From: Longimicrobiales bacterium
GTDB taxonomy: Bacteria > Gemmatimonadota > Gemmatimonadetes > Longimicrobiales > Gaopeijiaceae
DNA: 64,000 bases
Direction: 5' to 3'
NCBI GenBank assembly: GCA_965238005.1
Contig: OZ250165.1
Coordinates: 4,448,001 to 4,512,000 of the forward strand
The position numbers and the translations under genes are program-made. Shown in pieces: positions 3,348 to 21,923 of this stretch; position 1 is the first letter of the stretch; every line of letters starts with the position of its first letter. Under the pieces are notes generated by a model. It did not search any database. It worked only from the letters and a program-made list of their open reading frames with translations, and was not told the origin of the DNA.

Positions 3348-3358
3348 AAACGTCGCAA

Positions 3359-3381
3359 TCAGTCGGGGCGCCCGGATTTGA
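3359..3381 (-). repeat. 23-bp duplicate of the tRNA-Pro(CGG) 3' end (att-like scar)
   Basis: tcagtcggggcgcccggatttga is identical at 3359-3381 and 3507-3529. Confidence 0.85.
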
Positions 3382-3510
3382 GCTGCGGTCGCCCTCGGCG
3401 ATCCTCGCTCGTCTCGGCGGTCAGCTCCTAGACCGCAGAGCGGATCACACCAAGTCGCCTCGGCTGAACCTCCCGCTCAAACCCGGAAAAACCCAATCTG
3501 TTTTCCTCAG

Positions 3511-3584
3511 TCGGGGCGCCCGGATTTGAACCGGGGACCTCTGCGTCCCGAACGCAGCGCTCTACCGGACTGAGCCACGCCCCG
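3511..3584 (-). tRNA. tRNA-Pro(CGG)
   Basis: CTGCG-TT CGG GA-CGCAG anticodon arm. Confidence 0.95.
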
Positions 3585-3715
3585 AATTCTACCATTAAGC
3601 GCCCAGAAACCGCGTTCCTACGGGACGCGTGGGCCATCCTACTCCTAGCGGAAAGGGGTGGGAGTGTACTCGAACCGAATCACACAACGCCCGCGGTGGC
3701 CTCGTGTACTCCAAG

Positions 3716-3800
3716 CGGACGGGGTGGGATTCGAACCCACGTGGGCTATCAACCCACACGATTTCCAATCGTGCGCCTTAAGCCGCTCGGCCACCCGTCC
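3716..3800 (-). tRNA. tRNA-Ser(GGA)
   Basis: CACGA-TT GGA AA-TCGTG anticodon arm; long variable arm. Confidence 0.95.
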
Positions 3801-3846
3801 AGTTGTCAGTGAAGAATCCCACGTCCAACGCATTCAAGTACCTAAG

Positions 3847-3930
3847 CGGAGGGAGTGGGATTCGAACCCACGCGGACTTGCGTCCAACGCCTTAGCAGGG
3901 CGCCGCCTTAAGCCACTCGGCCATCCCTCC
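3847..3930 (-). tRNA. tRNA-Ser(GCT)
   Basis: CT GCT AA anticodon loop; long variable arm. Confidence 0.95.
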
Positions 3931-3937
3931 CAACAAG

Positions 3938-4010
3938 TTGCCCCTCTAGGGCTCGAACCTAGACTCTCCGGAACCAGAATCCGGCGTGTTGCCAATTACA
4001 CCAAGGGGCA
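3938..4010 (-). tRNA. tRNA-Gln(CTG)
   Basis: CCGGA-TT CTG GT-TCCGG anticodon arm. Confidence 0.95.
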
Positions 4011-4016
4011 TCTGAG

Positions 4017-4090
4017 AGCCACCTGTCGGAATCGAACCGACGACCCCGTCATTACGAGTGACGTGCTCTACCAGACTGAGCTAAGGTGGC
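4017..4090 (-). tRNA. tRNA-Thr(CGT)
   Basis: CGTCA-CT CGT AA-TGACG anticodon arm. Confidence 0.95.
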
Positions 4091-4096
4091 AAGCAG

Positions 4097-4169
4097 TGGA
4101 GCCGAGGGGAATCGAACCCCTGACCTCAGCATTGCGAACGCTGCGCTCTCCCAACTGAGCTACGGCCCC
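4097..4169 (-). tRNA. tRNA-Ala(CGC)
   Basis: CAGCG-TT CGC AA-TGCTG anticodon arm; G3:U70 pair. Confidence 0.95.
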
Positions 4170-4213
4170 CGACCATATCGGCCACTCGGCGTGTCCGCCA
4201 AGGGCCGCCAAAA

Positions 4214-4287
4214 TGGGCGCGAGAGGACTCGAACCTCTGACCTCTACGATGTCAACGTAGCGCTCTAACCAACTGAGCTACGCGCCC
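4214..4287 (-). tRNA. tRNA-Val(GAC)
   Basis: CTACG-TT GAC AT-CGTAG anticodon arm. Confidence 0.95.
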
Positions 4288-4297
4288 GGTCCCCTCC

Positions 4298-4335
4298 TTG
4301 TACTCCAACTTTGTACTCCAACTTTGTACTCCAAC
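4298..4335. repeat. Three tandem 13-bp repeats (ttgtactccaact) at the tRNA-Arg 3' end
   Basis: Copies start at 4298, 4311 and 4324. Confidence 0.9.
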
Positions 4336-4409
4336 ACGCCCGGAGGGACTCGAACCCCCGGCCTCCTGATCCGTAGTCAGGCGCTCTAATCCAACTGAGC
4401 TACGGGCGC
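4335..4409 (-). tRNA. tRNA-Arg(ACG)
   Basis: CTGA-CT ACG GA-TCAG anticodon arm. Confidence 0.95.
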
Positions 4410-4460
4410 AAACAAACAAACTGCAATACAGACGGTCTCGAAGACCACTCCTTTTCATCA

Positions 4461-4571
4461 GGCGACTTTGGTGCGGCGGTAGGAGGGCAAGGCGACCCGA
4501 CTGAGGCGTACACTCGTACGCCGCAGGGAGGGGAGACCGCAGTCCCGACACCGCGCTGCGCCAAAAGCGCC
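4461..4571. repeat. Imperfect palindromic REP/MITE-like spacer element
   Basis: Outer arms ggcgactttggtgcggcggt / accgcgctgcgccaaaagcgcc and an inner gcgtac-actc-gtacgc hairpin. Confidence 0.55.
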
Positions 4572-4580
4572 CGTGAAAAG

Positions 4581-4664
4581 TGCCCACGACAGGACTCGAA
4601 CCTGTACGCCGTTTCCGACACTGGTCCCTCAAACCAGCCTGTCTACCAATTCCAGCACGTGGGC
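4581..4664 (-). tRNA. tRNA-Leu(GAG)
   Basis: CTGGT-TT GAG GG-ACCAG anticodon arm; long variable arm. Confidence 0.95.
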
Positions 4665-4696
4665 GCTCTGTCGGACCGAACCGAGCCGAGCAGAAA

Positions 4697-4781
4697 TGCT
4701 CGGGGAGGGACTCGAACCCTCACGGGGTTAACCCCCACAGGGTCCTGAACCCTGCGCGTCTACCAATTCCGCCACCCGAGC
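4697..4781 (-). tRNA. tRNA-Leu(CAG)
   Basis: CAGGG-TT CAG GA-CCCTG anticodon arm; long variable arm. Confidence 0.95.
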
Positions 4782-4794
4782 CCGATCTGCACAG

Positions 4795-4867
<73 letters not shown>

Positions 4868-4906
4868 CGCACAATCAACCTGTGAGATGTCAAACAGCGT
4901 CTCCAG

Positions 4907-4981
4907 CGGGGCTGACGGGACTTGAACCCGCGACCTCCGGTGTGACAGACCGGCACTCTAACCAAGCTGAGCTACAGCCCC
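4907..4981 (-). tRNA. tRNA-Asp(GTC)
   Basis: CCGGT-CT GTC AC-ACCGG anticodon arm. Confidence 0.95.
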
Positions 4982-5025
4982 AAACGTCTACCGCGTCCGG
5001 ACCCCTGGTCCGGTGTCCTGCACCA

Positions 5026-5097
5026 TGCCCCCACGGGGAATCGAACCCCGATCTCCACCTTGAAAGAGTGGTGTCCTAGCCGCTAGACGATGGGGGC
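5026..5097 (-). tRNA. tRNA-Glu(TTC)
   Basis: CCACT-CT TTC AA-GGTGG anticodon arm. Confidence 0.95.
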
Positions 5098-5113
5098 GCA
5101 CTCCCCTGCCCAA

Positions 5114-5186
5114 CAGGCCCGGAGGGACTCGAACCCCCAACCCCCGGTTTTGGAGACCGGTGCTCTACCAGTTGAGCTACGGACCT
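5114..5186 (-). tRNA. tRNA-Trp(CCA)
   Basis: CCGGT-CT CCA AA-ACCGG anticodon arm. Confidence 0.95.
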
Positions 5187-5224
5187 CTGTTGTCCCGCGA
5201 CCGCAGAGGCGATCGGTGCATCAG

Positions 5225-5297
5225 TGGCCAGGGGCGGAATCGAACCACCGACACCGCGATTTTCAGTCGCGTGCTCTACCAACTGAGCTACCTGGCC
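5225..5297 (-). tRNA. tRNA-Phe(GAA)
   Basis: CGCGA-CT GAA AA-TCGCG anticodon arm. Confidence 0.95.
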
Positions 5298-5300
5298 GAC

Positions 5301-5335
5301 AAAAAAACCGCCCGGGCCTCTCGGCTACAGACGGT
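5301..5335 (-). terminator. Intrinsic terminator just upstream of tRNA-Phe
   Basis: ACCGTCTG-TA-GCC-GAGA-GGC-C-CGGGCGGT stem followed by a T run. Confidence 0.6.
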
Positions 5336-5466
5336 CTGACGAAGGGTGCGCGCTCGAAGTTTCTAGCGGCTCCCCTCGACCGCCCACGGTCGCAGGCTAG
5401 ACCACGTATCGGCCATCGTCCAACCCCGGGCCTGCTTGGCATCCGTCTGGAACATCGACCGACTCC
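5301..5466 (-). ncRNA. Candidate structured leader/attenuator RNA inside the tRNA operon
   Basis: Helices CAGACGG/CCGTCTG, GCAGGC/GCCTGC, GACCG/CGGTC and AGGG..CGCT/AGCG..CCCT. The closing helix overlaps the 5' arm of the terminator. Confidence 0.45.
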
Positions 5467-5493
5467 CTGAAAGCTGAATGGCCAGCACGTGGA

Positions 5494-5515
5494 AACGCCG
5501 CCCGAAGGCGGCGTT
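5494..5515 (-). terminator. UUCG hairpin after tRNA-fMet (weak terminator or processing hairpin)
   Basis: AACGCCGCC-TTCG-GGCGGCGTT with only a short T tail. Confidence 0.5.
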
Positions 5516-5524
5516 GTCAGCAAG

Positions 5525-5598
<74 letters not shown>

Positions 5599-7172: not shown

Positions 7173-7246
7173 CGGGACGTGGCGCAGCTCGGTAGCGCAC
7201 CTGAATGGGGTTCAGGGGGTCGCCGGTTCGAATCCGGCCGTCCCGA
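7173..7246 (+). tRNA. tRNA-Pro(GGG), likely integration site
   Basis: CCTGA-AT GGG GT-TCAGG anticodon arm; the integrase ends 28 bp downstream. Confidence 0.95.
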
Positions 7247-7273
7247 CTGTGGAGGTGATTGCCCCGCTTGATG

Positions 7274-8509
7274 TTACAGCATCAGGCGGGGTTTTGCGTT
7301 TGTCCCAAAAGTGGGACTTGTGCCTTTTCGTGTGCCTTTTCGTGCGCCATTCTGGCACTCTTTCCGGCGTTCCAACGCCCCTCGGAGTTTGTCTTCGTCG
7401 GGTCGTTGGTAGCACTTGATGACGGTCTCGATGTCCCGCCAGCCACCCAACTGGCACACCACACTGAGGGGCTCCTCATGGAGATCGGTGGCGAACTTCC
7501 TCCGGAGCGAGTGCCATCCCCGCCCTGGTTTCCGCTCGAGCCCGGCCCTCACCTCCGCCCGCCTCCACCAGTTCCTGAGCAGATAGCGCCCCACGGGCCT
7601 CGCAGGGTCCTTGGGCGCCGGGAGCACCGGGGAGTCACCGATGCCAGGGCCATGCACTCGAGCCTCCTCAAACGCGACCCTGGCGTCCTCCGTCATCGGT
7701 GTGACGTGGGCATAGCCCGTCTTCTCAGACTCAGCACGCCAGTGGATGCTCGCCCCTTCGAAGTCGAGGTCGGACCACCGGAGCACCCGGATGGCGCCGA
7801 TCCTGTGGCCTGTTTCGTGCGCCAGGATCAGCGCAACACGGAACCTCCAGTCGACCTCACCCGCGACGCCGAGCAAGACCGAATACTCATGAGCAGTCAG
7901 GGTAATACGCCTCGGGTTCTTCTCTTTCGGCAGGCGGTACCCCTTGAGGGGGTCCCGCTCAAGCAGCACTCCACCGTGGCCGTCCCCTGCCATGGTTGCC
8001 CACGTGAGCACCGACCTCAGGTAACTCAGATCCTTCTGGACGGTGCGGGTGGCCACCGGCTCCCACTGCCCGGGCCGTGGTCCAATACGACCCGATCCAC
8101 GGTCCCGGATGAATCCATCCCAGTCCCTCCTGTTCAGCGTCGTTGCTCGACGATCCGGACCGAAGTACCGGACAAACATGTCCGCCGCCTTGCGGTCGTA
8201 TTGCTGATGACGCTCCCCGTTTCTCGGGGTCACCTCACCTAGGTATATGTCAAACAGCTCTTGGAGCGTGAGCTCCGGCGGAGCCTCCTCGATCACGGAC
8301 TCCGCTCTTGCGAGCTTGGCCGCAACCTCGTCAGCCTTACGCTTCGCCTTCTCGCGGTCGGAGTGACCCAGGGCGATGCGCTTCCGCTCACCGTCGTCCC
8401 GGAACTCGAGGGTCAGTGATCCTCCCGGCCGCTCGAAGATCCGAACACGGTTCCTGCCCTTCTCGCCGGACAGGTAGCTCCATCCCTTCCTTGTGCGTCT
8501 GGCCATCAT
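7274..8509 (-). CDS. Tyrosine recombinase/integrase
   Basis: Catalytic R (TGHRIG), HSLRR, LGGW in place of LGH, and KCY tyrosine. Confidence 0.9.
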   Translation of the reverse strand: MMARRTRKGWSYLSGEKGRNRVRIFERPGGSLTLEFRDDGERKRIALGHSDREKAKRKADEVAAKLARAESVIEEAPPELTLQELFDIYLGEVTPRNGERHQQYDRKAADMFVRYFGPDRRATTLNRRDWDGFIRDRGSGRIGPRPGQWEPVATRTVQKDLSYLRSVLTWATMAGDGHGGVLLERDPLKGYRLPKEKNPRRITLTAHEYSVLLGVAGEVDWRFRVALILAHETGHRIGAIRVLRWSDLDFEGASIHWRAESEKTGYAHVTPMTEDARVAFEEARVHGPGIGDSPVLPAPKDPARPVGRYLLRNWWRRAEVRAGLERKPGRGWHSLRRKFATDLHEEPLSVVCQLGGWRDIETVIKCYQRPDEDKLRGALERRKECQNGARKGTRKGTSPTFGTNAKPRLML

Positions 8510-8886
8510 TGGTCTCCTGCTCTGATGGCAGATTGCACGACCTCCGTCCGTGAAATCTGGAGGTTCTGGGGGTGCCGTACCACCCCTGCCCTGACCGGCA
8601 GGTCTCCTCGGGCGATCCGGGGAGCTCCAGGCCTACCAGCGTTCGCGATCCTTCCCTCTCGGACGAGGCGCCCGAGGTGGTCTGTAGAGTACCCGCTGAG
8701 GTCGGAGGCCTCGGTGAGGGTCAGGGGGGCGTCGGCTCCCTCGCGGAGGGCTTTCTCGAGGGCGTCAGCGCATTTCTCGTAGGCGAGGGCCACGGAGGTC
8801 TCCTCGTGCTCTCGAAAGAGCCTACTCCTATCGCGCCACTCCTCAGGGAGGTCAGCGGGGAGCACGGGGCCGTTGGCGGACTTCAC
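8506..8886 (-). CDS. Excisionase-like winged-HTH DNA-binding protein
   Basis: LTLTEASDLSGYSTDHLGRLVREGRI; overlaps both neighbours by 4 nt. Confidence 0.65.
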   Translation of the reverse strand: MKSANGPVLPADLPEEWRDRSRLFREHEETSVALAYEKCADALEKALREGADAPLTLTEASDLSGYSTDHLGRLVREGRIANAGRPGAPRIARGDLPVRAGVVRHPQNLQISRTEVVQSAIRAGDQ

Positions 8887-11294
8887 GACCCCACCTCCTC
8901 GTCCTCCGTCGCCGACTCATCCACTAGATCAAAGAGGTCGGCGACGTTCTCGACGCGACCGCCGTGTCCGGCCCGCCACCCGGGAATAGCGTAGTACCTG
9001 TGCCGGTTCCCAGTGCGCCTGTTCTCGATGGCTCCACGGTGGATCAAATCACGAACAGCTTCCTGTTTGGCACCGTTACGACCCTCGACACGGTCGCGGA
9101 TGTGTTGCGCAGCACAGCCCGGCTCGCTCTCAATGAACTGGAACACACGTGCGAGAAGGGAGAGCTCTCTTGGGACGTCCACGAGCTCGACCACGGCGCT
9201 CGCAAAGAGAGTTGGTTCACTGTCGTCTGTGGTCGTCAGCGACAGACCCGTAAGCCCCTTCAGACGGAAGCCGAGCGGCAGAGGTTTGTGGCCGCCGTCC
9301 CGCATCTTCCGTGTCTTGAGGGTCATGGGGTTGCCGCTATCGAGAGCTTCCCTCGTGCCTTTGATCACATAGGAGAAGTCCAGGCCCTGTTCCCAGGCCG
9401 AAGCCCCCCGTAGGCGGTCGCTGTCGCCGTATCCCACGTGGTGCGTGAAAAGAGACGTGCAGTCAGTTTCGGCTGCAAACCGTGAGAGTAAGCCAGTGAT
9501 GGCGTTGGCAGTGTCGTTGTCATTCTCCGACTGCTCTGCCCCTAACGTTTTTCCGAGCGTGTCGATGATGACGAGGCCAGCGCCGGTCTGATTGATTGTG
9601 TTGATCAATCCGGTTTCAAAAACCGGGTCGTCGAACCGAGGCGGGTACTCGCTGATTATGACACGGCCCCGAAGCACCTCCTCCATCTCGGCGAGCGTAG
9701 CACTCTCGCGTAGGTACCCGTGTTCAACCAACCAGCCGAAAATCCGCTTTGGGAAGTCGCGATTTCCCTCGGCGATTAGAAAAATGACGGGCTGCTGCGT
9801 CGTCTCGGACCCGAGCCAGGGCCGCCCGAAGGCGACCGAGCATCCCAGGTCGATCACCAGCCAGGTCTTCCCAAGAGAGAAATCTGAGACGATGGCGCCA
9901 ACGCCAGCAGCGGGGATGCGCCCGTCGACGAGGTACCGATCTTCCAATCGGATGTCCTTTATATTTAGGGCTCGGAGAACGGGCACCCCGTCAGCATCGC
10001 GCACGAAGGCGGCCCGCCCATTGGATGGCTTGACCGAGTTCAGTACATCCTGCGCCCCCTGCCTGCCCAGAAGGTTGTCCAACTTGCGGGTCAAGGCGGC
10101 TTCGGCGAGCGTGCGCTCCCGATGATCCAACGTGGGGAGCATCGCCAGCACCCGGTCACTCGTGTCCAGTGCTGTCGCCAGTGAGTTCGGACCGAGCTGC
10201 CCAATCAGCTTAAGCGCGGTGGACAGGGCGTCAGAGCAGCATGCAGGGCCCTCCGTAGCCTCTGGAGCGTCCTGGTCAGCCTCAAACAGCCCTTGAATCT
10301 CCTCCACCCTCTCTTGGGAGAGTTCCTCCTTGAGGGTGTCCTCCCCAACCTTGAAGCCCTGCCCCCGTAGCCACTTCCACCCGATCTCGAATGGGGGTTT
10401 GAGACTATCCCATGTCCTCTCCACGAGATCAGGATCGTTCTCGCCCCCCTTCCAGCGGCCGGAAAAGTCCTGAAACATCTCAAGCCCTGCGATCACGTCG
10501 TCCTGGGCCGCCGCCCGGATCGCGATTCCAAACCTGATCCACTCGTCGCGGGTCTCGTACGTGTTCGGGATCCGGGCAATGAGCTCCTCGAGCTCCTTGA
10601 TCGAGGGGGCCTTGAGGTCCTCCTGCGGAGGCGCCTCCTTCACTCTCCCGTCCCCCACGATCTCGACGTCGAAGCCCTCGTCGCGAAGAAGGGTCGCGAG
10701 GTGCTCGAAGAAAGCCTGAGCGCTCACCCTGCTCACCCACGGGAGGGTCTCCGGGTCTACCTCCCAGAGCGGGGCGCCCTCCCATCCATAGTCGACCCCG
10801 GAGGGGTGACGGCCGTGGATGAGGTACTGGCGGCCCTTGCCGAGCCACTCGATCTCTGCCGATTCGTCTCCCTTCCGGACCTTGAGGACCATCTTGGGGA
10901 AGGGCTCCTTCGTCCGATAGACGAGGAGGCCGCGAGGGTGGCGCGAGGTCCGGTAGGGCGACGGCCCGAAGGAGGACTCGGCCTCCTTGCGGACCAACTG
11001 CGTCAGCTTCTCGAAGTCAGAGTCGATGTCCAGAGCTGGGAAGCGGTTACCGAGGAGACCAATGTTCGCCCTCCACTCGTCGATGGTGGCGGGGTCGATG
11101 CTCTCCTTCGTGAAATTGTAGCCCCGCCACCCGTGGGGTCCCATCTCACCAGGACATTTCCCGCGCTGGCCGGGGTCTATCTTAGAGTACGGTGAAAGGT
11201 CACCGTCCGGTGGGATGACGGAAACGAGCTCTGTGTAGCCTCTGTTGTAGAGTTTGGTCGCGACGTCGTTGTCGCGGCGTGTGTTGTGAGACAT
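8883..11294 (-). CDS. Bifunctional Prim-Pol + PriCT-2 + AAA_25 (RepA-like) primase-helicase
   Basis: ALDID and HPSG..Y.W (Prim-Pol); RDEWIRFGIA (PriCT-2); Walker A SDFSLGKT, Walker B VIIDTL, HHVG and LRGAS. Confidence 0.85.
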   Translation of the reverse strand: MSHNTRRDNDVATKLYNRGYTELVSVIPPDGDLSPYSKIDPGQRGKCPGEMGPHGWRGYNFTKESIDPATIDEWRANIGLLGNRFPALDIDSDFEKLTQLVRKEAESSFGPSPYRTSRHPRGLLVYRTKEPFPKMVLKVRKGDESAEIEWLGKGRQYLIHGRHPSGVDYGWEGAPLWEVDPETLPWVSRVSAQAFFEHLATLLRDEGFDVEIVGDGRVKEAPPQEDLKAPSIKELEELIARIPNTYETRDEWIRFGIAIRAAAQDDVIAGLEMFQDFSGRWKGGENDPDLVERTWDSLKPPFEIGWKWLRGQGFKVGEDTLKEELSQERVEEIQGLFEADQDAPEATEGPACCSDALSTALKLIGQLGPNSLATALDTSDRVLAMLPTLDHRERTLAEAALTRKLDNLLGRQGAQDVLNSVKPSNGRAAFVRDADGVPVLRALNIKDIRLEDRYLVDGRIPAAGVGAIVSDFSLGKTWLVIDLGCSVAFGRPWLGSETTQQPVIFLIAEGNRDFPKRIFGWLVEHGYLRESATLAEMEEVLRGRVIISEYPPRFDDPVFETGLINTINQTGAGLVIIDTLGKTLGAEQSENDNDTANAITGLLSRFAAETDCTSLFTHHVGYGDSDRLRGASAWEQGLDFSYVIKGTREALDSGNPMTLKTRKMRDGGHKPLPLGFRLKGLTGLSLTTTDDSEPTLFASAVVELVDVPRELSLLARVFQFIESEPGCAAQHIRDRVEGRNGAKQEAVRDLIHRGAIENRRTGNRHRYYAIPGWRAGHGGRVENVADLFDLVDESATEDEEVGS

Positions 11295-12418: not shown

Positions 12419-12932
12419 ACCCGTGCCGGTCAGGGAGGGATCGGCACTCGCCCCGGTAGGGTGTGCCCGTAAGGGCACCCCCGGGCGAGTAGGCCAGGCC
12501 TTGGAGGGACGGACAGATGTCACACCTTGAGTGGAGAGACTGGGTCGGACCTGCGACAGAGCCGTGTCTCAGCGATATTCAGTGCGGCGTCGCGGAGCAT
12601 CTGACTTGCTGATCGTCAATTGATCTCAGGCATTTCTTTCGGAACATGAATCGACAAGAACTGGATACAATCGTCACGGGCGGTGAGTCAGAGCAAGTCG
12701 AGTTCAAGCGCACTACCGGCCAAAGGACGGAAGGAGCAAGAGCCGTCTGCGGAATGCTGAACGGATCAGGTGGCTTCGTCTTTTGGGGTGTAGCCGACGA
12801 CGGGCAGATTAGTGGCCAAGAGATCGGATCAGGGACGATCGAAGGGCTGGTTGCCGCTCTTCGGCAGCTGGAGCCACCTGTGCTTATGCAGCCAGAGCTC
12901 GTCCCTATAGGCAACAATCGATCAGTGATAGC

Positions 12933-14410
12933 CCACTGATAGGTAACGCTTTTCTCACCCCTGATGGGTGACAGTCTCGACCCGTAACGTGGCGCTCCTT
13001 CGACACGCTCTTGGAGCTGCCCATGCCATGGTTGGAGACCGATCCCATGAACGAACGCAAGCGATTCATCCTCGAGGCCACCGCGAGCCTCTTCTCCCAC
13101 TCCGAACTCTGCCGACGCTACAACATCAGCCGCAAGACGGGCTACAAGTGGCTCGAACGATACGAGACCCAAGGACCCGACGGGCTGCTCGACCGCTCCC
13201 ATCGGCCCCATTGCTGTCCCCACGCTACTGAGCCCCACATCCTCGAGGCTGCCTTCGAGCTCCGCCGTCGTCGACCCCGGTGGGGAGCTGCCAAGATCCT
13301 AGGCCGCCTCCTCGAGGTGCACCCCGACTGGTCGCTACCCGCGCCCCAGGTCCTGCACAGACACTTCCTGCGCGAGGGCCTGGTCAACAAGCTGCGGCGC
13401 CGACGTAAATCCTCTCATCCCGGTCGACCCACCGCGCCCTTCGATGCGCCCAACTCCATCTGGTCCGCCGACTTCAAGGGGCAGTTCAAGACCCTCGACG
13501 GCGTCTACTGCTACCCGCTCACCGTCCAGGATGGCTTCAGCCGCTACCTGCTCGCTTGTCAGGGCCTCTCAGGGACCACCTACGCCGGTTCCAGACGTGT
13601 TTTCACCCGCCTCTTCCACGAGTTCGGGATCCCCGACCGCATCCGTACCGACAACGGTACTCCCTTTGCCTCCATAGCCTTAGGGCGCCTCTCCAGGCTC
13701 TCCGTCTGGTGGATCAAGCTCGGCATCCTGCCCGATCTCATCGAGCCCGCATCTCCCCAGCAGAACGGCCGCCACGAACGCATGCACAAAGACCTCAAGG
13801 CTGAGGCCACCATCCCGCCCGCCGGAAACCGATCCGCTCAGCAGAAACGCTTCAATGCCTTCCGCATTGATTTCAACGAGATCCGGCCCCACGAGGCCCA
13901 CGGCCAGAGGCCGCCCGCCTCCGTCTACGAGCCCTCAACCCGTCCCTTCCCCAGCAAGCTCTTGACCCCCGACTACCCCGCCCACTTCGAGACCCGTAAG
14001 GTCTCCATCAACGGCGGCATCCGATGGCACTCCGCCTGGGCCAACGTCTCTCATCTGCTCGGCGGCGAATACATTGGCCTCGAGGAGGTCGCCGACGATG
14101 TCTGGGCTGTCTACTTCGGTCCCGTCGCCCTCGGTTGGCTTCACGTCCGAAAAGCTGCCATCCTCGATCACGATGGCTCCTCGTCCCGTAATCCACGACG
14201 CTGAGGCCGCGTGAACTGCCCAGCCCCTCAGACGTCGACGCGAACCGCTACCTTCGTGGAACTCCGCTCGCTTCTACTCCCCTGCGCTCCGGCGCAGCGG
14301 AAGCTTCTGACTCCACCGGTGGAGGTAACAAAAAAAACAGCAGCTTACCTGACAAGAACTGTCACCCATCAGGGGTGTGTAACTGTTGGTACCCATCAGG
14401 GGTACCGCTC
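12933..14410 (+). mobile_element. IS481-family insertion sequence
   Basis: 19-bp perfect subterminal IR acccctgatgggtgacagt (12957-12975 / 14358-14376), plus degenerate outer copies. Confidence 0.85.
13023..14204 (+). CDS. IS481-family DDE transposase
   Basis: MPW..., ISRKTGYKWL, WSADFKG, RTDNG.PF and PQQNGRHERMH motifs. Confidence 0.92.
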   Translation: MPWLETDPMNERKRFILEATASLFSHSELCRRYNISRKTGYKWLERYETQGPDGLLDRSHRPHCCPHATEPHILEAAFELRRRRPRWGAAKILGRLLEVHPDWSLPAPQVLHRHFLREGLVNKLRRRRKSSHPGRPTAPFDAPNSIWSADFKGQFKTLDGVYCYPLTVQDGFSRYLLACQGLSGTTYAGSRRVFTRLFHEFGIPDRIRTDNGTPFASIALGRLSRLSVWWIKLGILPDLIEPASPQQNGRHERMHKDLKAEATIPPAGNRSAQQKRFNAFRIDFNEIRPHEAHGQRPPASVYEPSTRPFPSKLLTPDYPAHFETRKVSINGGIRWHSAWANVSHLLGGEYIGLEEVADDVWAVYFGPVALGWLHVRKAAILDHDGSSSRNPRR

Positions 14411-15660
14411 ACTGGGAGTACCGGGCGGTCGTATCGAACCCTACACCTATGACGGACGTCCATATGTCCGCCATGGTCCGACGACGCTGCAAATGCCTCA
14501 GGAGGAGTATCGGCGGCGACTGATTGAGCAAATGCACCCCACGCAGCGATGGGAGATCCAGCCCGCTCACGAATTGTCCATGGAAGACCTCGATACGTCT
14601 GAGATCGTCAGAACGGTTGAAGAGGCGATCCGTCGAGGCCGTTTGGATGAGCCCGCCACGAGGGACCCTGGGCATCTACTCCGTGGGTTGGGACTCCTCC
14701 GAGATGACCGAATCCTAAATGCAGCGGTCGCGCTATTTGGTCTTGAGAGCTCGTTTCTCCCTCACTATCCCCAGTGCCTTCTAAGGATGGCCCGATTTCG
14801 AGGGGTTACCACGCACGACTTCGAAGATAATCGACAAGTCCATGGTAACGTCTTCGACCTGCTTCTGCGCGCCCAGCGCTTTCTTCGGGAGCACCTGCCC
14901 GTCGCTGGACGGATCGTCCCGGACCTCTTTCAGCGGCAAGACGATCCGCTCTACCCTCCAGAGGCTCTTCGGGAGGCACTCGCCAATGCGTTTTGCCACA
15001 AATCCTACGGGATAGGAGGTGGCTCGGTGAGTATCGCGATCTTCGATGACCGACTCGAAGTCTCAAGTACGGGTCGCCTACCATTTGGTCTCACGGTAGA
15101 CGACCTCACTCGACCCCATCCATCCCGACCGTGGAATCCACTCATGGCGGGGGTCCTGTACCGAAGGGGCCTTATCGAGCAATGGGGTAGGGGAACGCTC
15201 CGTATCGCGGAGCTAATCGAACAGGCTGGATTAGCCGAACCAGAGTTTGAGGAGCGAGGTGGGGAGGTCGTGGTCCGCTTCTTTCCGACCGGATATGTGC
15301 CGCCTCGGCGGGTCGATCATCCGTTGACGGACCTTCAGCAGCAGCTCCTTCGGGCTCTTGCGGAGATCGGCCCAGCTCTGTTGAATGAAATCCTCACCCT
15401 ACTCCCCGCAGGTGTTGCTTCCAGGACCGTGCAGTACAACCTAGGGACGTTACGCGAGCTAGATCTAGTTGAGCTGCAGGGCTGGGGCCGAGGAGCTCGT
15501 TGGCGCCTAACGGGCAGGTGACTGGTTGCGCCTTTTTGTTCCTTTTGCGCCTTTATAGTGCTGACCGTTTGATCGGCGACGAAACTCGGTTGGAATAGCC
15601 AGGGCCTTAGAACCAGGGCCGTTCCGGGTCACTTAGGCAAAAGGGCAGCGAGACTCCGTT

Positions 15661-15729
15661 CGGGCTCATTCGGGTCCATTCGGGTCCATTCGGGCTCATT
15701 CGGTCCATTCGGGTCCATTCGGGTCCATC
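15661..15729. repeat. Seven tandem ~10-bp repeats (cgggtccatt / cgggctcatt)
   Basis: Read directly from the sequence. Confidence 0.9.
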
Positions 15730-15768
15730 TACCTTCTTCGACAGTCGTAGCGCGCGCGTAGCACACCG

Positions 15769-16089
15769 CCCCCCCCTTGGGGCCCCTCCCCCCGGGGGCG
15801 AGGCAGACAAATCTCGACAGCACTTTGGCCGTGACAGTCCTCGCGCACGCGTGAGACACGCGCCGAGATCGGCAGTCGATAACTACACGGCCGAGCTGCA
15901 TACTCGAGCGCAATCTCTCCCGTAGCGACGAGCTCATGAATATCCGCTGATCTGTAAATGACTGTCCTGCACTCACTTACGGCACAGTACAGGCTGCGTA
16001 TAATAGGGATTATGTAAAGCATCTGACCCCGGCACCCGGCGCTGCCGTGCACCCCCCCTTTGGGGCCCCTCCCCCCGGGGGCGAGGCAG
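15769..16089. repeat. ~38-bp C/G-run direct repeat at 15769-15806 and 16052-16089
   Basis: ccccccc(t)ttggggcccctccccccgggggcgaggcag occurs twice. Confidence 0.85.
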
Positions 16090-16238
16090 TCGCCTACCCC
16101 TCACAGCGCGACGCGGGGAGTCCCGCCAAAAAAAATGGGGGATCTGGCCATTTTCTCCGATCCGCCCCCCTCCGGGCATTTCTCGACCCAGAAAAACCCT
16201 TTCCCTGGGGAATCCATTAGTTGGGTCATACAACTACT

Positions 16239-16703
16239 ATGTCAGGACGACCGTTTCTACAAATGATCTCAAAGAAGATCGAATCCCTCGGCGGGGACGA
16301 GTGGTTTTTTGGGCGGATCATCAACGGGGACACGATGGCGGCCATCGCGGAGACCGTGGAGTGCTCCCGTCCGTTTCTGTACCAGTGGCTCGACCTCAAG
16401 CGGGAGGAGCGCCGGGCGGCGCTCCCTGCAGCTAGACGGCTGTCGGCGGACGCCCACGTCGAGGGCGGGCAGGAGCTCCTGGACCGCCTGGCGGGCACCG
16501 ACGCGACCTCGTCCGAGGTCTCCCTGACCATCGCCCGGGCCAGGTACAGGCAGTGGCGGGCCTCGCGGTACAATCGGGAGCTGTATGGGGAGCCCCGGCC
16601 CGGGCTGGATGTGAGTATCTCGATAGGGCAGCTCCACCTGGACGCACTTCGGGCGAAGGGGGCCATGGAGGTCCCGGAGGCGGAGGTCAAGCTTGTCGAG
16701 TAA
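16239..16703 (+). CDS. Phage terminase small subunit-like protein
   Basis: N-terminal HTH (GDTMAAIAETVECSRPFLYQWL), helical core, RQWRASRYNRELYG and IGQLHLDALR tail, as in Sf6-like/podovirus TerS. Confidence 0.65.
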   Translation: MSGRPFLQMISKKIESLGGDEWFFGRIINGDTMAAIAETVECSRPFLYQWLDLKREERRAALPAARRLSADAHVEGGQELLDRLAGTDATSSEVSLTIARARYRQWRASRYNRELYGEPRPGLDVSISIGQLHLDALRAKGAMEVPEAEVKLVE

Positions 16704-16805: not shown

Positions 16806-17261
16806 TTATCGGCGACGGGAGGTTCGTCCTCTCGACCAAGACTTGAGCGTTTCCGCAGCCTCGTAAGCGCCTGCTGACAAGACCGCCGCAAGCCCGACAG
16901 CCACAGCCATCCAGACCAGACCCAGCCAAAGCACATTGCCGTTGAGGAAGAACTCTGCAAGGACTCGCTGCCCGTGAACCCAAGAGGGGTCTGGCACGTA
17001 GACCGCCTCCGGCGAAAAACTTCCGCCCCAGAGCTGGTAGGCGCTGACGCTCCGGGCGGTACCCTCGTACCACCAGTTGACGAGCGGGGCGCCGATCCCG
17101 ACTAGCACCATGACAAGACCGGGCGACATTAGGATGAGATTGATGCCAACGAGGGCGTTCTCAAGCCTGGGATCTTCCACCTGATCCACCTTTGTGTCAG
17201 CACGGTCGCGCGGGGGGGGGGCGCCATTTGCGGCCCCCACGTCGGTTCTGTCCGCCTTCAA
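16806..17261 (-). CDS. Hypothetical two-TM membrane protein
   Basis: Two hydrophobic segments; start uncertain. Confidence 0.45.
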   Translation of the reverse strand: MKADRTDVGAANGAPPPRDRADTKVDQVEDPRLENALVGINLILMSPGLVMVLVGIGAPLVNWWYEGTARSVSAYQLWGGSFSPEAVYVPDPSWVHGQRVLAEFFLNGNVLWLGLVWMAVAVGLAAVLSAGAYEAAETLKSWSRGRTSRRR

Positions 17262-17310: not shown

Positions 17311-17345
17311 TTCTATGGTGTCGATGCCTATGGTAGGAACGCCTA
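17311..17345 (+). promoter_or_regulatory. 15-bp-periodic operator-like repeats upstream of the XRE gene
   Basis: ctatggt at 17313 and 17328; gccta at 17326 and 17341; palindrome cctatggtagg. Confidence 0.4.
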
Positions 17346-17357
17346 ACGTCCTCGTCA

Positions 17358-17627
17358 ATGGATCAGGAGGCCGAGAGACTACATCGGGCCATTGGCCGAC
17401 GTCTACGGGAGCTGCGCCGTGCCGAACCGGAGCTCTCGCAGGAGAAGCTCGCCGCACTAGCGGGCTTCCATCGAACGTACATAGGGAAGGTCGAGCGCGG
17501 AGAGACGGCGACGACGGTGGACGGCCTGGCGGCACTCTGCTCAGCGCTCGGCACAACCCTCGCCGAGTTCTTTCAGCCTTTCGATCGGCCCCTCAAGCTC
17601 CGCGGCCCCCGTCGTCGTCGTCCGTAA
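17358..17627 (+). CDS. XRE HTH regulator, controller (C.) protein-like
   Basis: LSQEKLAALAGFHRTYIGKVERGE; no obvious RBS. Confidence 0.85.
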   Translation: MDQEAERLHRAIGRRLRELRRAEPELSQEKLAALAGFHRTYIGKVERGETATTVDGLAALCSALGTTLAEFFQPFDRPLKLRGPRRRRP

Positions 17628-18257
17628 CGACGAATCCCGCTCCTGACGTATGTGGAGCGGTGCGTTATCAGAGAGCAGGAGACGATGCGCCGCTTCAGAG
17701 AAACGACTGCGTTCCTTACGGACGTCGCCAAGCCGTCATCGGACCGGTGAGGTCTGAGGAAAAAGACGGCCTACAAGCGGCTGGTGTAGAAAGGGGCCTA
17801 TGAGGACCGCGAATCCCTATATCTTTGCGGGGTTCGCGGTCCTCACGTTGTTACGGAATCGTGAGAATCGGCACCAGAAACGGCACCCGATGAACCTGGC
17901 GCCGCCAAGGGGTCTTCGTGACGGCCCGGCGGATGTCTTATATTATGAACGTGCTCGGGCCGGAGTGGCCCTAGCGCCGGGACATACCAAGGGCGGCAGT
18001 CCTTGGATATCAGAAGGATACCTCTAATGGCGGTTTATCCGGTCACGCTGGGCCGTTCCCTTATTGCACCTGTTCCGGTGCTCTGCCTATTAGGCAGCCT
18101 CCCGCGCCACCATCACTCCGCGATCCCGCCTGCACGTCCGTGATGTGGCGAGGCCAGCTACTCGGCCCCGTCGCATCCTCCTGCTAGGGCCCACCCGGGG
18201 GCCTAGCCGAACGACCGCCAAGGGCCATGTCCTTGGGTGATATGAAAGGGTACTGCT

Positions 18258-20180
18258 ATGGTTTTCGATCATGGTGTCCTGCCCATGAAGACGGCAGGAA
18301 CACATCACTTCATCGACCGGACGTATCGCGAGAGCGGGCAATTCCAGTGGGTGCGAGAGACCTTCACCAACGCCATCGAGGCCGACGCGACGCGCGTAGA
18401 GTTCGGCATCGAATGGCAGGCAGTGGAGAGCCTCGGTGTTTACCGGCGTGTGATCGCCGATAACGGTCAGGGGATGACCGCCGACGAACTCGTCGAGTTC
18501 TTCAACACGTTCGGTGGAGGCGGGAAGCCGATCGGTGGGGTCCACGAGAATTTCGGTGTCGGCGCGAAGACGTCCCTACTTCCATGGAACAAGTATGGTC
18601 TCGTCGTCATCTCTTGGGTCGACGGTGACCCCGCGATGATCTGGGTTCGCCATGACCCCAAGTCAGAAGAGTACGGCCTCCAGGTTTTCGAGGCGTTCGA
18701 CCCGGACACGGACGACATGAGTCTGGAAGAGGTGGTCTTCCCCTTCGACGACCCTGATCACGGGTGTGACTGGGAGTTGGTCAAGCCGGACTGGATTCAG
18801 GAGCACGGCACCGTTGTGGTGCTGCTCGGCGACGATCCCACGGCCCATACCGTTCTGGGTGATCCAAACCGGGAGGAGGCTGACATCAAAGGCATCTCCC
18901 GCTACCTGAATCGTCGGATCTGGACCGTCCCGGACGACGTGGACGTGCTTGTGGATGAGCTTCGCACCAACGATCGGGCGAATTGGCCCCGATCTGAGGA
19001 GGAGGCTCACGGAGCTCCGCCAGACAAGGGGTACGACAGGCGGTCGAACCTGCGGCGTATCGAGGGGGCCGAGTACTTCATCGAGTATCCAGCCAAAGGC
19101 TTCAAGAAGGGTGCGCTGGAGGCTTCGGGGGTCGTCGGGCTGGAGGACGGTACCGACGTGGCGTGGTATCTCTGGAGCGGAGATCGTCCCGCCGTTCAGT
19201 CGTATGCTGCCATCGGCGGGTACATAGGCGCTCTCTACCAAAACGAGCTCTACGATATCACCGCCCATGCAGCCACCTACCGGTCTTTTGGTGTCAGCGA
19301 GGGCGATGTTCGTCGGCGGCTCTGGCTGATTGTTATGCCGGCGCGGCTAGATGACGATCGGACCCAGGGCGTGTACCCCAGGACCGACCGAAACTCGCTG
19401 CTGTTGAAGGGTGGCCCGAGCGCCGGGGAGCCCCTCCCCATCAACGACTGGGGGAACGAGTTCTCCGACCTCCTGCCAGAGCCCATCCTGGCGGCTATCC
19501 GATCGGCTCGTGGAGGAGCGCACGGTTCGATCACGGACCCGACGTGGCGAGATCGTCTGGCAGAGCGGTTTGGGAAGCTGTGGCGGATTCCAAAGCTCAG
19601 GCGGAAGAAGGGTGGCCCAGTATCGATGGATCCCGACCAAGAGGGGACCGATCCGCGACCGGTTAGAAAGCCCTCTCGCAGGCGCGGAATGAAGGGGTCG
19701 GGAGGAGGTGGTGGCACCAAGGGAGCCTCGAACACAGGCAGCGCCGGTTCCAAAGAGGAGGGACGGAAGTCCAAGGTCTCCGGCGGCATTCCGGAGTTCC
19801 TCTGGCGACCCGCGACCGACTTCGAGTCGCTCGGATATCTCGGTGCCTGGCAACCGAATGACCCTGATTACCCCCAGGGCGTCGTACTCCTGAACGTCGA
19901 GCATCCAGTGATAGAAGGCGAGATCGAACGCTGGCAGTCGATGTATGCTGACCATCACGCAGACGGTGTCCGGGAGGAGGTACTCCGGGCCTACGGGGAG
20001 ATCGCGGTCTCGAAAGTGGCCCACTCCGAGTTTCTCAAGGCCCACCTCGCCTCTGGGAAGGTCGATGAAGAACTTCGATCGCCAGGAGCGCTAACGATGG
20101 CGCTTCTTGGGCTCCTGGCTGAGGAGGCCGTCATCTCAACCCGAGTGGGTGGAAAGTTCGGCCGCAGGCGAACCGCCTGA
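18258..20180 (+). CDS. GHKL (Hsp90/MORC-like) ATPase
   Basis: N-box ETFTNAIEA, G1 DNGQGM, G2 NFGVGAK; Lys/Gly-rich linker; C-terminal LNVEHP motif. Confidence 0.8.
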   Translation: MVFDHGVLPMKTAGTHHFIDRTYRESGQFQWVRETFTNAIEADATRVEFGIEWQAVESLGVYRRVIADNGQGMTADELVEFFNTFGGGGKPIGGVHENFGVGAKTSLLPWNKYGLVVISWVDGDPAMIWVRHDPKSEEYGLQVFEAFDPDTDDMSLEEVVFPFDDPDHGCDWELVKPDWIQEHGTVVVLLGDDPTAHTVLGDPNREEADIKGISRYLNRRIWTVPDDVDVLVDELRTNDRANWPRSEEEAHGAPPDKGYDRRSNLRRIEGAEYFIEYPAKGFKKGALEASGVVGLEDGTDVAWYLWSGDRPAVQSYAAIGGYIGALYQNELYDITAHAATYRSFGVSEGDVRRRLWLIVMPARLDDDRTQGVYPRTDRNSLLLKGGPSAGEPLPINDWGNEFSDLLPEPILAAIRSARGGAHGSITDPTWRDRLAERFGKLWRIPKLRRKKGGPVSMDPDQEGTDPRPVRKPSRRRGMKGSGGGGGTKGASNTGSAGSKEEGRKSKVSGGIPEFLWRPATDFESLGYLGAWQPNDPDYPQGVVLLNVEHPVIEGEIERWQSMYADHHADGVREEVLRAYGEIAVSKVAHSEFLKAHLASGKVDEELRSPGALTMALLGLLAEEAVISTRVGGKFGRRRTA

Positions 20181-20261
20181 GGCCGTGACCAACACTCACA
20201 AGCTCGGCATCACGGTACCGCCGGGGGGTCCCCCGGTGGTGCCTGTCGGGAAGGAGATGAC

Positions 20262-21161
20262 ATGAAGAATGCGTTCTACAGGGCTCGTCGTCGCGGTTCA
20301 GTTATCCTCGGCCCTGACGGACTCCCCGTGCGCAGGAACCGGCGCTACGCTGCAGACAAGCTTTCGTTCTTTGATCGGTGGCTACCTCCCGCACTGAAGA
20401 TTACCAGAAAGAAGATCCACAGACACTACGTGGACTTCTTCGCCGGCTACGGAGCGTACCAGGATGAGAACGAGGAATTCTGCCAGGGATCACCCATAAA
20501 GGCCCTTACCCTCTCTCCGGACGAAGCTGGATTCACCCACGCAACGTTCGTGAATCTGGACGAGGAGGCTCACTACACGCTGCAGGAGCGGGTACGGCAA
20601 GTAGTCGACGCGGGGAAGACGGGTGTCCCTTGGTCCAACGTCCGCTTCATCCTCGGAGACGCCAACGAGGTCGTTGAGGACGTGCTCTCCGAGATCCACC
20701 CACGGGCCTTCGTCTTTGCGTTTATCGACCCGGAACAGGTGCGACAGTGGCACTGGTCCACGGTGCAGAAGCTGGGTGGCGGCCGCCATGAGAGTGTGGA
20801 CATCTATATGCTGCTTCCACTGGAAATGGGGATTTTCCGAGAGATGGGATATGACCTAGAAGCCTGGCCCGCCGACGATCTGGACACGTTCGTAGGCTCA
20901 CGCGAGTGGGAGAATCTGAAGCGACTCCGGACTTCGCAGCGCAGGAGTCGTGAGATGCGGGCAGCGTTTGAGAAGTTGTACGTACGACGACTCCGGCAGC
21001 ATTGGTCCTATGCGGGGAGGCAACGGAAGGTCTACCTCAGGGGTAACCAGGCGCTATATCGGATGATATTCGCGACCAACAATGAGCATGCGTGGGACCT
21101 GGCGGAGTGGGAAGTCTCAGGCCCCCGCCCTCGCGACCCTCAACTCAGCCTCGACCTGTAA
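20262..21161 (+). CDS. tcmP: Three-Cys-motif partner protein TcmP (Rossmann methyltransferase-like)
   Basis: K-L, YVDFFAGYG, GSP, GDAN, FAFIDP and Y.MIFAT motifs. Confidence 0.8.
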   Translation: MKNAFYRARRRGSVILGPDGLPVRRNRRYAADKLSFFDRWLPPALKITRKKIHRHYVDFFAGYGAYQDENEEFCQGSPIKALTLSPDEAGFTHATFVNLDEEAHYTLQERVRQVVDAGKTGVPWSNVRFILGDANEVVEDVLSEIHPRAFVFAFIDPEQVRQWHWSTVQKLGGGRHESVDIYMLLPLEMGIFREMGYDLEAWPADDLDTFVGSREWENLKRLRTSQRRSREMRAAFEKLYVRRLRQHWSYAGRQRKVYLRGNQALYRMIFATNNEHAWDLAEWEVSGPRPRDPQLSLDL

Positions 21162-21923
21162 TCGGTTTGTCGACGGATACTGATCCCACGTCACACCGTC
21201 GAGTAGGCGGCCGTGTGCCTTCGGCGTGCGGCCGCCTACTTGCTTGAAGAAGAAGGGCACGCCGGCCGCAAGGGATTGATCGCGGACGCCACGAGCCCAA
21301 TCCAGGTCCATCGGCCGGTGGTGGGGCCCGCTCTCCCCTCCCGCGATCACCCAGTGCACTCCTTCGAGCTCCAGAAGGAGTGGGCCGAGGAGCGGCTCGC
21401 AGGAGAGGAATCGGACCGCTGCTGGTACCTGACGTAGCTGGCTTACACGGTAGTAAACCTTCTGCCCCTCGACGGAGGTACCGATCCAGATGTGGGCCGG
21501 TATGGCCTCGCCGCCGAAGAGGTCCACATTTCGCCTGTAGAATCGATGAGCTCGCGACGGACGCTTGGTAAGGACCTGATATACATGCCGATCCTCGTCG
21601 AGCATGACTCTAAAGATCCGGCGGATATACTCGTTGGGGATGTCGTTGTGGAAGAGGTCGCTCATCGAATTGACGAAGACCATCCGCGACGCGGACCAGC
21701 TTCGGGGCTGGCCCAACCGTTCGGGCCAGAGCCGGACAGCGAAAGGGTCTCTCCGATTCTCAGCGGTATCGACAACGGGAAGGCGACGAGTGTAGGTCTT
21801 CCTCAGCCGGCGTCCTGCAAGCTCGGCGGCATAACAGTGGTCGCACCCAGTCGACACCTTCGTGCAGCCAGTGGTCGGATTCCACGTAGCGTCCGTCCAC
21901 TCGATGCCGGTTTTCTCACCCAA
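21117..21923 (-). CDS. DUF5131 / phage Gp37Gp68 radical-SAM-like protein
   Basis: IEWTDATWNP, CTKVSTGCDHCYA (Cx6Cx2C), FVNSMSDLFH, LTKR, EPLLGP and GGESG; TTG start with GGGAGG RBS. Confidence 0.92.
   Translation of the reverse strand: MGEKTGIEWTDATWNPTTGCTKVSTGCDHCYAAELAGRRLRKTYTRRLPVVDTAENRRDPFAVRLWPERLGQPRSWSASRMVFVNSMSDLFHNDIPNEYIRRIFRVMLDEDRHVYQVLTKRPSRAHRFYRRNVDLFGGEAIPAHIWIGTSVEGQKVYYRVSQLRQVPAAVRFLSCEPLLGPLLLELEGVHWVIAGGESGPHHRPMDLDWARGVRDQSLAAGVPFFFKQVGGRTPKAHGRLLDGVTWDQYPSTNRLQVEAELRVARAGA

Follow-up and report, generated by a model that had tools for sequence, protein, structure and literature searches.

We analysed a 64,000-nt stretch of contig OZ250165.1 from a Longimicrobiales bacterium (hereafter the window, meaning the whole stretch; all coordinates are positions in it), in which a gene for a GHL-type ATPase is followed by genes for the three-Cys-motif partner TcmP and the radical-S-adenosylmethionine (SAM) superfamily protein DUF5131, on an integrase-bearing island by a tRNA-Pro gene. 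On balance, we think it probable that two autonomous mobile modules, the ATPase and the TcmP–DUF5131 pair, make up this locus as a mosaic, and that it is not one three-gene system. Both modules favour defence-type or mobile regions, which explains why they are occasionally found side by side. An earlier note on this DNA had proposed a candidate three-gene defence or DNA-modification system behind a controller-like XRE regulator, with the ATPase as its reader or effector. The features concerned are as follows.

17358..17627 (+): XRE-family helix-turn-helix (HTH) regulator, 89 aa (HTH_31, 2.2e-12; PADLOC Control_protein, 5e-16)
17801..17845 (no strand): inverted repeat with 17-nt arms, 94% complementary, 11 nt apart (repeat search)
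18258..20180 (+): stand-alone GHL (MORC/Hsp90-like) ATPase, 640 aa (HATPase_c_3, AlphaFold AF2 model, conserved ATP motifs)
20214..20243 (+): G+C hairpin with a 13-bp stem and a 4-nt loop, located after the stop codon of the ATPase gene and before the ribosome-binding site of TcmP
20262..21161 (+): TcmP, three-Cys-motif partner, 299 aa (TIGR04474; PADLOC PDC-M41A)
21117..21923 (-): DUF5131 (Gp37/Gp68), radical-SAM-superfamily three-Cys protein, 268 aa (PF07505, 8.7e-90)

The four open reading frames (ORFs) lie where the earlier note had placed them, and family scans bore out its labels for the XRE regulator, the ATPase, TcmP and DUF5131. The ATPase and TcmP genes, both on the plus strand, are separated by the 81-bp gap that holds the hairpin, and TcmP and DUF5131 are convergent with a 45-bp overlap, all as the note had claimed. 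Like that note, we found no description of the three-gene form in the literature searched. Public metagenome contigs from two studies carry a near-identical ATPase–TcmP–DUF5131 arrangement; they derive from the same strain and are not independent evidence.

Linkage of the ATPase to the TcmP–DUF5131 pair

To see how often the ATPase and the pair occur together, hidden Markov models (HMMs) for TcmP and DUF5131 were built and scanned over 133 ATPase loci, including 80 metagenome loci. The pair was found in only two of them, L065 and L153. Dereplication at 90% identity reduced 132 loci to 102 groups, among which 43 near-full-length loci had at least 1.8 kb of downstream sequence; the pair was present at two of these and missing at 41. 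It was found at one of the 34 viral ATPase loci (L065), whereas the 19 genome loci of ATPase relatives all lacked the pair, the XRE regulator and the TerS-like gene described below. In the reverse direction, the ATPase was seen at none of the 44 TcmP loci of the host phylum (0/30, a set with 1.5-kb flanks only, and 0/14) and at none of the 80 viral DUF5131 loci, that is at 0/124 pair or DUF5131 loci in all. In the phylum sample just one further genome (G100) has an ATPase as well as a TcmP gene, and the two are ~810 kb apart. Nor did the ATPase have any other constant companion, as no neighbour family occurred in more than five of the 102 dereplicated groups. With the pair at 2/43 ATPase loci and the ATPase at 0/124 pair loci, neither an obligate three-gene system nor a conserved one with the ATPase as reader or effector is supported. 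The ATPase thus has no conserved neighbourhood link to tcmP/DUF5131, yet L153 and L065 are two further independent adjacent cases, so that a complete lack of linkage is not what we found either.

The signals between the genes agree with three separate transcription units, as far as can be read from the DNA. The hairpin parting the ATPase gene from the TcmP gene has a predicted folding energy of -40.6 kcal/mol (z -2.78); it lacks a T tract, and for this reason was passed over by the terminator scan. DUF5131 has a promoter-like site of its own at 21983-21954 (consensus match). Upstream of the ATPase, the XRE gene ends 630 bp away with the inverted repeat in between, possibly a terminator or an operator, and a further promoter-like site (17918-17946, consensus match) lies past the repeat and before the ATPase. 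The description of the XRE protein as controller-like stands in so far as a restriction–modification (R-M) controller model matched it at ~630 bp from the ATPase. It also matches the generic HTH families capH, HipB-like and RstR, and its homologues were seen at 0/131 ATPase loci and at none of the 44 TcmP loci of the host phylum that were queried with it. The protein thus probably serves to regulate the island itself, rather than being a conserved ATPase controller.

Several observations weigh against the mosaic reading. First, three loci with separate positions on the ATPase tree (a quick IQ-TREE run), namely the window, L153 and L065, have the pair immediately downstream of the ATPase gene, and their nearest tree relatives with adequate flanks (L009; L014, L174 and L150) lack the pair. 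The order in L153 is the same as in the window, namely ATPase, TcmP and convergent DUF5131, and the start of TcmP there overlaps the last 4 bp of the ATPase gene, which looks like an operon. L065 is a contig that resembles a prophage and encodes an integrase and a tail protein; its gene order is ATPase, convergent DUF5131, TcmP, resolvase. Secondly, the three TcmP types are barely alignable (25-27% identity) and occur in two layouts. The separate tree positions, the divergent TcmPs and the two layouts together indicate that the juxtaposition arose at least three times. Thirdly, at genome-wide density 0.03 pairs would be expected in the 0.77 Mb of flanks, compared with two observed (Poisson P ~5e-4). 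With rough inputs, a 10-fold enrichment of the pair in islands brings P to ~0.045 and a 50-fold enrichment to ~0.5, suggesting that chance explains the count easily only if islands are enriched tens-fold. Fourthly, the defence-type context that speaks for the mosaic, namely matches of PADLOC models (E<=1e-5) to 21 of the 143 immediate ATPase neighbours in 89 dereplicated loci, is a rate of 15% that lacks a baseline from an unrelated control family, and many of the neighbour ORFs in high-G+C contigs may not be real genes. Finally, the right end of the island was not located, so that carriage of all these genes as cargo of one element is not proven.

The three independent adjacencies, each of them 3' of the ATPase gene, together with the overlap in L153 and a pair count above random expectation, favour a facultative three-component system in which a minority of ATPase loci recruited a TcmP–DUF5131 cassette. 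In such a system the pair would mark host DNA or make a modified nucleotide, and the ATPase clamp would sense and block unmarked DNA, by analogy with what is proposed for MORC/paraMORC ATPases and methylases in R-M-like operons. It is also in keeping with this proposal that ATPase relatives adjoin DNA methylases and modification-dependent nucleases, and that the available text of Iyer et al. (2008, PMC2292703) ties prokaryotic MORC/paraMORC ATPases to methylase-containing R-M operons. However, the pair is missing from nearly all ATPase loci and the ATPase from every pair or DUF5131 locus. The ATPases of L153 and L065 are 61% identical but their TcmPs only 25%, in different layouts, which means that the genes did not descend together as one block. 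In the window itself, the hairpin and the promoter-like site of DUF5131 set the genes apart, and both modules function apart elsewhere. We consider a facultative system rather unlikely, and co-residence of two autonomous modules in islands, as the mosaic reading has it, can explain the pair count. Taken together, the trio should not be treated as one machine. The pair is already catalogued, and what is new here is the recurrent juxtaposition of the ATPase with a radical-SAM pair, in three independent cases.

The GHL ATPase family and its neighbours

The predicted structure and the conserved motifs indicate that the ATPase is a GHL ATPase with a GHKL domain and an S5 transducer. Pfam gave two HATPase matches and nothing else; the match to HATPase_c_3 (3.6e-5, 24.2 bits) falls below the gathering cut-off of 25 bits, which the relatives in L065 (43.2 bits) and L153 (34.3 bits) exceed. 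Residues E34 and N38 of the N-box (ExxxN), G70 and G102 are invariant in 77 homologues, and D68 and G72 (DxGxG) and G100 and K104 (GxGxK) are at least 90% conserved. The AF2 model has a mean confidence (pLDDT) of 91.3 and a pTM of 0.86. By VIA structure comparison, residues 11-417 matched MORC3 (5ix2_A; Z 19.6, root mean square deviation 3.7, 300 residues aligned), MORC4 (7k7t_A; Z 19.1), Hsp90 (8ffv_A; Z 18.8) and SMCHD1 (6mw7_D; Z 18.6), with a sequence identity of only 12-16%. As the top Z scores are tied within 1, the fold cannot tell which GHL branch is nearest. Comparison of the ATPase profile with solved structures gave only weak matches to MutL, TopoVI-B and MORC2, all within residues 26-105, and a fold search of BFVD gave generic GHKL matches only (topoisomerase, Hsp90-like and rIIA; TM 0.23-0.40).

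The GHKL and transducer part is followed by a basic, Gly-rich linker of low model confidence (~447-520) and then by a C-terminal strand-plus-helix domain. When the C-terminal part was modelled separately (pLDDT 62), this weaker sub-model reached a best Z of 5.3 among 48,161 chains by VIA, which is at noise level and no proof of a new fold. We recognised no nuclease, TIR or other effector domain in the ATPase; Pfam, PADLOC (no match) and the comparison of the C-terminal fold all agree here with the earlier note, which had seen no nuclease motif.

A word-based search returned 461 relatives; among the matches listed (119 besides the window's own) these were 57-67% identical and 625-672 aa long, and all were annotated as 'hypothetical protein' except for one 'ATP-binding protein'. 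When cluster representatives were searched exhaustively, 1176 clusters matched at E<=0.001 and 283 at E<=1e-30; most share the full-length architecture (~620-680 aa among the 150 listed representatives). Relatives occur in Actinomycetota, Chloroflexota, Planctomycetota, Pseudomonadota, Bacteroidota and Myxococcota, and in at least five of 401 genomes of the host phylum, a count made under a stricter filter. No ATPase homologue was detected by tblastn in 50,697 isolated phage genomes. The viral scan for relatives used a 13-sequence alignment, the 77-sequence alignment being too divergent for search patterns. By these searches the family is large, unnamed, uncatalogued as defence and normally solitary.

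Apart from the TcmP and DUF5131 genes themselves, which account for two of the 21 PADLOC matches, the neighbours of the ATPase matched MTase_II (three), Vsr, DndB and the pAgo-associated Aga_REase. One neighbour matched mREase_IV alone, and a second had mREase_IV as a secondary match beside PDC-M26A. Further matches were to a BrxH/SngC-like helicase, an NsnB/AriA-like ABC ATPase, a dCTPase, a CARF protein and a Cas4-like protein, and to the candidate models PDC-M19B, PDC-M26A, PDC-S31 and PDC-S11. An EVE-MTaX1 protein with a DUF2357/PDDEXK_7 partner was another neighbour, and N6_N4 methylases occurred in 3/102 groups. Pfam showed toxin-antitoxin genes, integrases, insertion sequence (IS) elements and housekeeping genes. 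Several genome loci adjoin housekeeping genes (rpoD/dnaG, recJ and serA-like), and at 12/19 genome loci no integrase, recombinase, transposase or toxin-antitoxin gene was present among the ORFs scanned within 4 kb. The neighbourhood is suggestive of a defence-island habit, and makes the ATPase a candidate stand-alone conflict gene.

Some subgroups had neighbours of their own. In an ATPase subclade 44-45% identical to the window's, an unannotated gene of ~555 aa without a Pfam match (L128:4301-5977 and L132:463-2127) is co-oriented with the ATPase and lies 15-24 bp upstream of it; relatives of this gene lie farther from the ATPase in three more groups, and it may be a clade-specific ATPase partner. 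A gene for an ABC-type ATPase (AAA_15/AAA_21; PADLOC NsnB, HEC-03B, AriA-like; L130:572-2830 and L143:371-2479) precedes the GHL ATPase by 125-141 bp in two groups, and in two more it is found within 2-4 kb. Six small viral contigs of IMG/VR (L072-L077) encode remote GHKL relatives (25-28% identity across residues ~10-450), located 71-81 bp after a TerS-like gene, with a conserved ~454-aa gene farther downstream and, in L074, also a Mu-type portal gene. In L078 and L080, the TerS-like gene is downstream of the GHKL relative instead.

Compared with prokaryotic MORC and paraMORC1-5, as the available text of Iyer et al. describes them, the window ATPase likewise combines an N-terminal GHKL domain, whose ATP motifs are intact, with an S5 transducer and a C-terminal extension of its own, and its family is likewise sporadic and laterally mobile, with occasional DNA methylase, Vsr and type IV nuclease neighbours. 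In contrast with the operons in that text, the family has no conserved SF-II helicase, endonuclease or methylase partner, the window ATPase has no fused nuclease or TIR domain, and its C-terminal domain matches no solved fold. A second comparison is with the single-gene anti-phage GHL protein Tiamat (Yuan et al., bioRxiv 10.64898/2026.09.30.754977). In the portion of that preprint available, Tiamat resembles the window ATPase in being a stand-alone GHL protein near nucleic-acid-modifying genes and in the proposed substrate clamp between N-terminal gates and C-terminal dimer. However, Tiamat has a C-terminal PD-(D/E)xK (NOV_C/DUF3883) nuclease as well as DUF3684, whose folds are TPR-like and metalloprotease-like, and none of these is present in the window ATPase. 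With HATPase matches only in Pfam, no PADLOC match and no nuclease-like C-terminal fold, the window ATPase is not Tiamat. Its best structural matches are eukaryotic MORC2/3/4, SMCHD1 and Hsp90, although it has no CW, coiled-coil or hinge domain; its basic flexible linker recalls the DNA-binding linker of MORC2, as cited in the same part of that preprint.

From the folds and motifs, we infer the following mode of action. The ATPase would dimerise via its C-terminal helical domain, its N-terminal gates would close upon ATP binding, and the flexible basic linker would hold DNA, in the manner of MORC and Hsp90-type clamps. Because it has no nuclease of its own, it would probably compact or trap DNA, or work through unlinked host factors. 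A bolder proposal would make this ~640-aa family, found across many bacterial phyla and missing from present defence catalogues, a new single-gene protein that clamps DNA in immunity or against mobile elements and that in some lineages repeatedly captured TcmP–DUF5131 as a self-marking or substrate-generating partner. We think this unlikely as a whole; if true, it would be a modification-linked MORC-like system, a bacterial parallel to the eukaryotic MORCs that read epigenetic marks. In any case, the ATPase appears to be the fresher lead of the two modules, as a large, well-conserved and unnamed family with neither an effector domain nor a fixed partner. If it restricts phages or plasmids alone, it would show how a bare GHL clamp acts in immunity, with a bearing on the origin of eukaryotic MORCs.

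The TcmP–DUF5131 pair

The other module is, judged by its family matches and its distribution, an autonomous pair that is already catalogued as an anti-phage candidate. The earlier note had described TcmP and three-Cys DUF5131 proteins as recurring partners of unknown function, and they are indeed listed by PADLOC as the defence candidates PDC-M41 and PDC-M30. The window TcmP and DUF5131 match PDC-M41A (3e-18) and PDC-M41B (3.5e-88), and PDC-M30A (4.9e-6) and PDC-M30B (9.6e-85), respectively. Like those systems, the window pair is adjacent and mobile, and both are known by prediction only; it differs in that its TcmP is of a short divergent subtype without a winged-helix tail, and in that its two genes are convergent with the 45-bp overlap. 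The PDC pairs correspond to the combination of NCBIfam TIGR04474 with Pfam PF07505. As described in the available part of Payne et al. (bioRxiv 10.1101/2024.01.29.577857), the PDC systems are 145 untested candidates, picked since their relatives occur within BREX, DISARM or type I R-M systems.

TcmP scored well above the TIGR04474 cut-off (1.1e-32; 114 bits compared with 53), and residues D58, F60, A61, G62 and G64 (DxFAGxG) and D156 are conserved. Neither the window protein nor its profile had a Pfam or Protein Data Bank (PDB) sequence match, the profile giving nothing below E 0.99 against solved structures. Weak methyltransferase matches were obtained for the window TcmP (PADLOC MTase_II, 0.0095) and for the TcmP of L065 (Methyltransf_31, 3.8e-5, below cut-off). 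A match to RlmJ-like Atlas clusters was also weak (0.84), and a search of 21 related genomes did not find RlmJ (PF04378). TcmP is a putative SAM-binding protein whose fold may be methyltransferase-like. It evolves fast, and the short divergent subtype of the window had only four relatives in the word-based search. Among 27 TcmPs scanned, a GMT-like winged-helix domain was found in those of L153, L021 and L023 and weakly in that of L034; the window TcmP has none.

DUF5131 matched PF07505 with 300.9 bits and the phage family phrog_2045 with 1.5e-90, and has at least 593 relatives in IMG/VR. The cysteines C20-x6-C27-x2-C30 are invariant in 12 and at least 95% conserved in 28 aligned relatives, and the GGE-type motif GGESG (195-199) is invariant. 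The spacing Cx6Cx2C is a variant that departs from the canonical radical SAM motif CX3CX2C. The DUF5131 profile found no sequence relative among solved structures. The literature searched is nearly silent on DUF5131, consisting of RadicalSAM.org (PMC9477430) and otherwise of annotation mentions only; the RadicalSAM.org table, within the part of that paper available, places it as Megacluster-5-2, beside spore photoproduct lyase at 5-3.

TcmP was found in 55/401 genomes of the host phylum, with DUF5131 adjoining it in 27/30 and 13/14 of the loci fetched. The orientation varies, and the convergent layout of the window is a common one. Among 39 viral pairs, 15 were convergent, 14 had TcmP first and ten had DUF5131 first. 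The window-like TcmP subtype is also convergent with DUF5131 in L056, L059 and L064. The host genome carries a second pair (L028; G000:C1:2763787-2767551) of the commoner co-directional type, in which DUF5131, 61% identical to the window's, comes first and is followed by a longer TcmP. In L064:6834-8651, a convergent window-like pair starts 128 bp after a tRNA-Val gene and forms a small islet beside the tRNA.

With regard to what the pair may do, we go beyond the gene identities, folds, motifs and neighbourhood statistics given above, and its biochemistry, like any anti-phage role of either module, is read from the folds and motifs. The three cysteines of DUF5131 presumably hold a 4Fe-4S cluster, with which the protein would carry out radical chemistry with SAM on DNA or a nucleotide. 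TcmP, SAM-binding and sometimes DNA-binding by prediction, could guide DUF5131 or work beside it. Acting together, the two proteins would add a chemical mark to DNA or to a nucleotide, or take one away.

The island at tRNA-Pro and its other genes

The trio lies on an island that has the following other features.

7173..7247 (+): tRNA-Pro(ggg), likely integration site and left end of the island (ARAGORN)
7274..8509 (-): tyrosine integrase, 411 aa (PHROG phrog_1 integrase, 1.9e-47)
8883..11294 (-): primase/helicase-type replication protein, 803 aa (PHROG phrog_906 DNA polymerase/primase, 2.2e-26, and other primase/helicase PHROGs)
16221..16703 (+): TerS-like small HTH protein (terminase small subunit), 160 aa (Pfam PF20901 Sf6_terminase; PHROG phrog_1482)

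The integrase gene begins 27 bp past the tRNA-Pro gene, and the integrase has a 45%-identical homologue in L059. In a genome of the same genus (G442), the left flank is 93% identical and the DNA past tRNA-Pro is not in common, within 20 kb. The tRNA, the integrase and the primase-helicase support an integrated element, as the earlier note had proposed; its further statement that the trio is cargo of this one element meets the difficulty of the unlocated right end raised above. A direct repeat of the tRNA-Pro 3' end was not found, either as a 23-mer with up to three mismatches or as a 16-mer with up to two, and the repeat search found no long repeats informative on the limits of the island. The G+C content of the locus (0.60-0.63) is not distinct from that of the rest of the window.

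The phage-like genes bear on another explanation, in which both modules serve the mobile element and not host defence; the pair would modify the element's DNA against restriction or repair damage, and the ATPase would act in DNA handling or packaging. DUF5131 is common in phages, and its megacluster is next to that of spore photoproduct lyase. The contig of L065 is prophage-like, and the viral GHKL relatives of L072-L077 closely follow a TerS-like gene, with a portal gene in L074. In the window, too, a TerS-like gene (PF20901, 2.7e-6, 27.9 bits against a cut-off of 27; phrog_1482, 4.3e-6) lies 1.55 kb upstream of the ATPase. Against this, the ATPase had no match among the isolated phage genomes, most genome loci lacked mobility or toxin-antitoxin genes nearby, and several adjoined housekeeping genes. 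A TerS-like homologue was seen beside none of the 131 closer ATPase relatives, and the presence of such a gene near both the window ATPase and the viral GHKL relatives may be a coincidence. No LexA-type palindrome was seen upstream of DUF5131 or the ATPase, a weak check as the LexA box of the host was not identified. Service to the element seems to us distinctly unlikely, and we keep to that of two autonomous modules sharing an island.

Other features of the island and its surroundings were as follows. A dense array of 17 tRNA genes (3264-5598, minus strand) lies directly left of the island's tRNA-Pro. Within 12646-15521, a gene for an IS481-family transposase (13011-14204; rve, LZ_Tnp_IS481) is flanked by a 97-aa Schlafen/AlbA_2 fragment (12646-12939) and an ORF with HATPase_c_4 and HTH domains (14211-15521), which together look like one AlbA_2-HATPase_c_4 gene broken by the IS insertion. 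The IS481 element had a much higher read depth in the metagenome contigs, as for a repeat. Between it and the XRE gene there are seven tandem copies of a ~10-bp unit (GGTCCATTCG-like) at 15653-15738, and a 38-nt G+C-rich repeat that occurs twice (15769-15806 and 16052-16089), its copies 283 bp apart and shortly before the TerS-like gene. The XRE gene has as its divergent neighbour an ORF of 151 aa (16806-17261, minus strand) with hydrophobic stretches; a promoter-like site is present at 17358-17330, and the two genes could form a regulator-plus-membrane-protein unit of the island.

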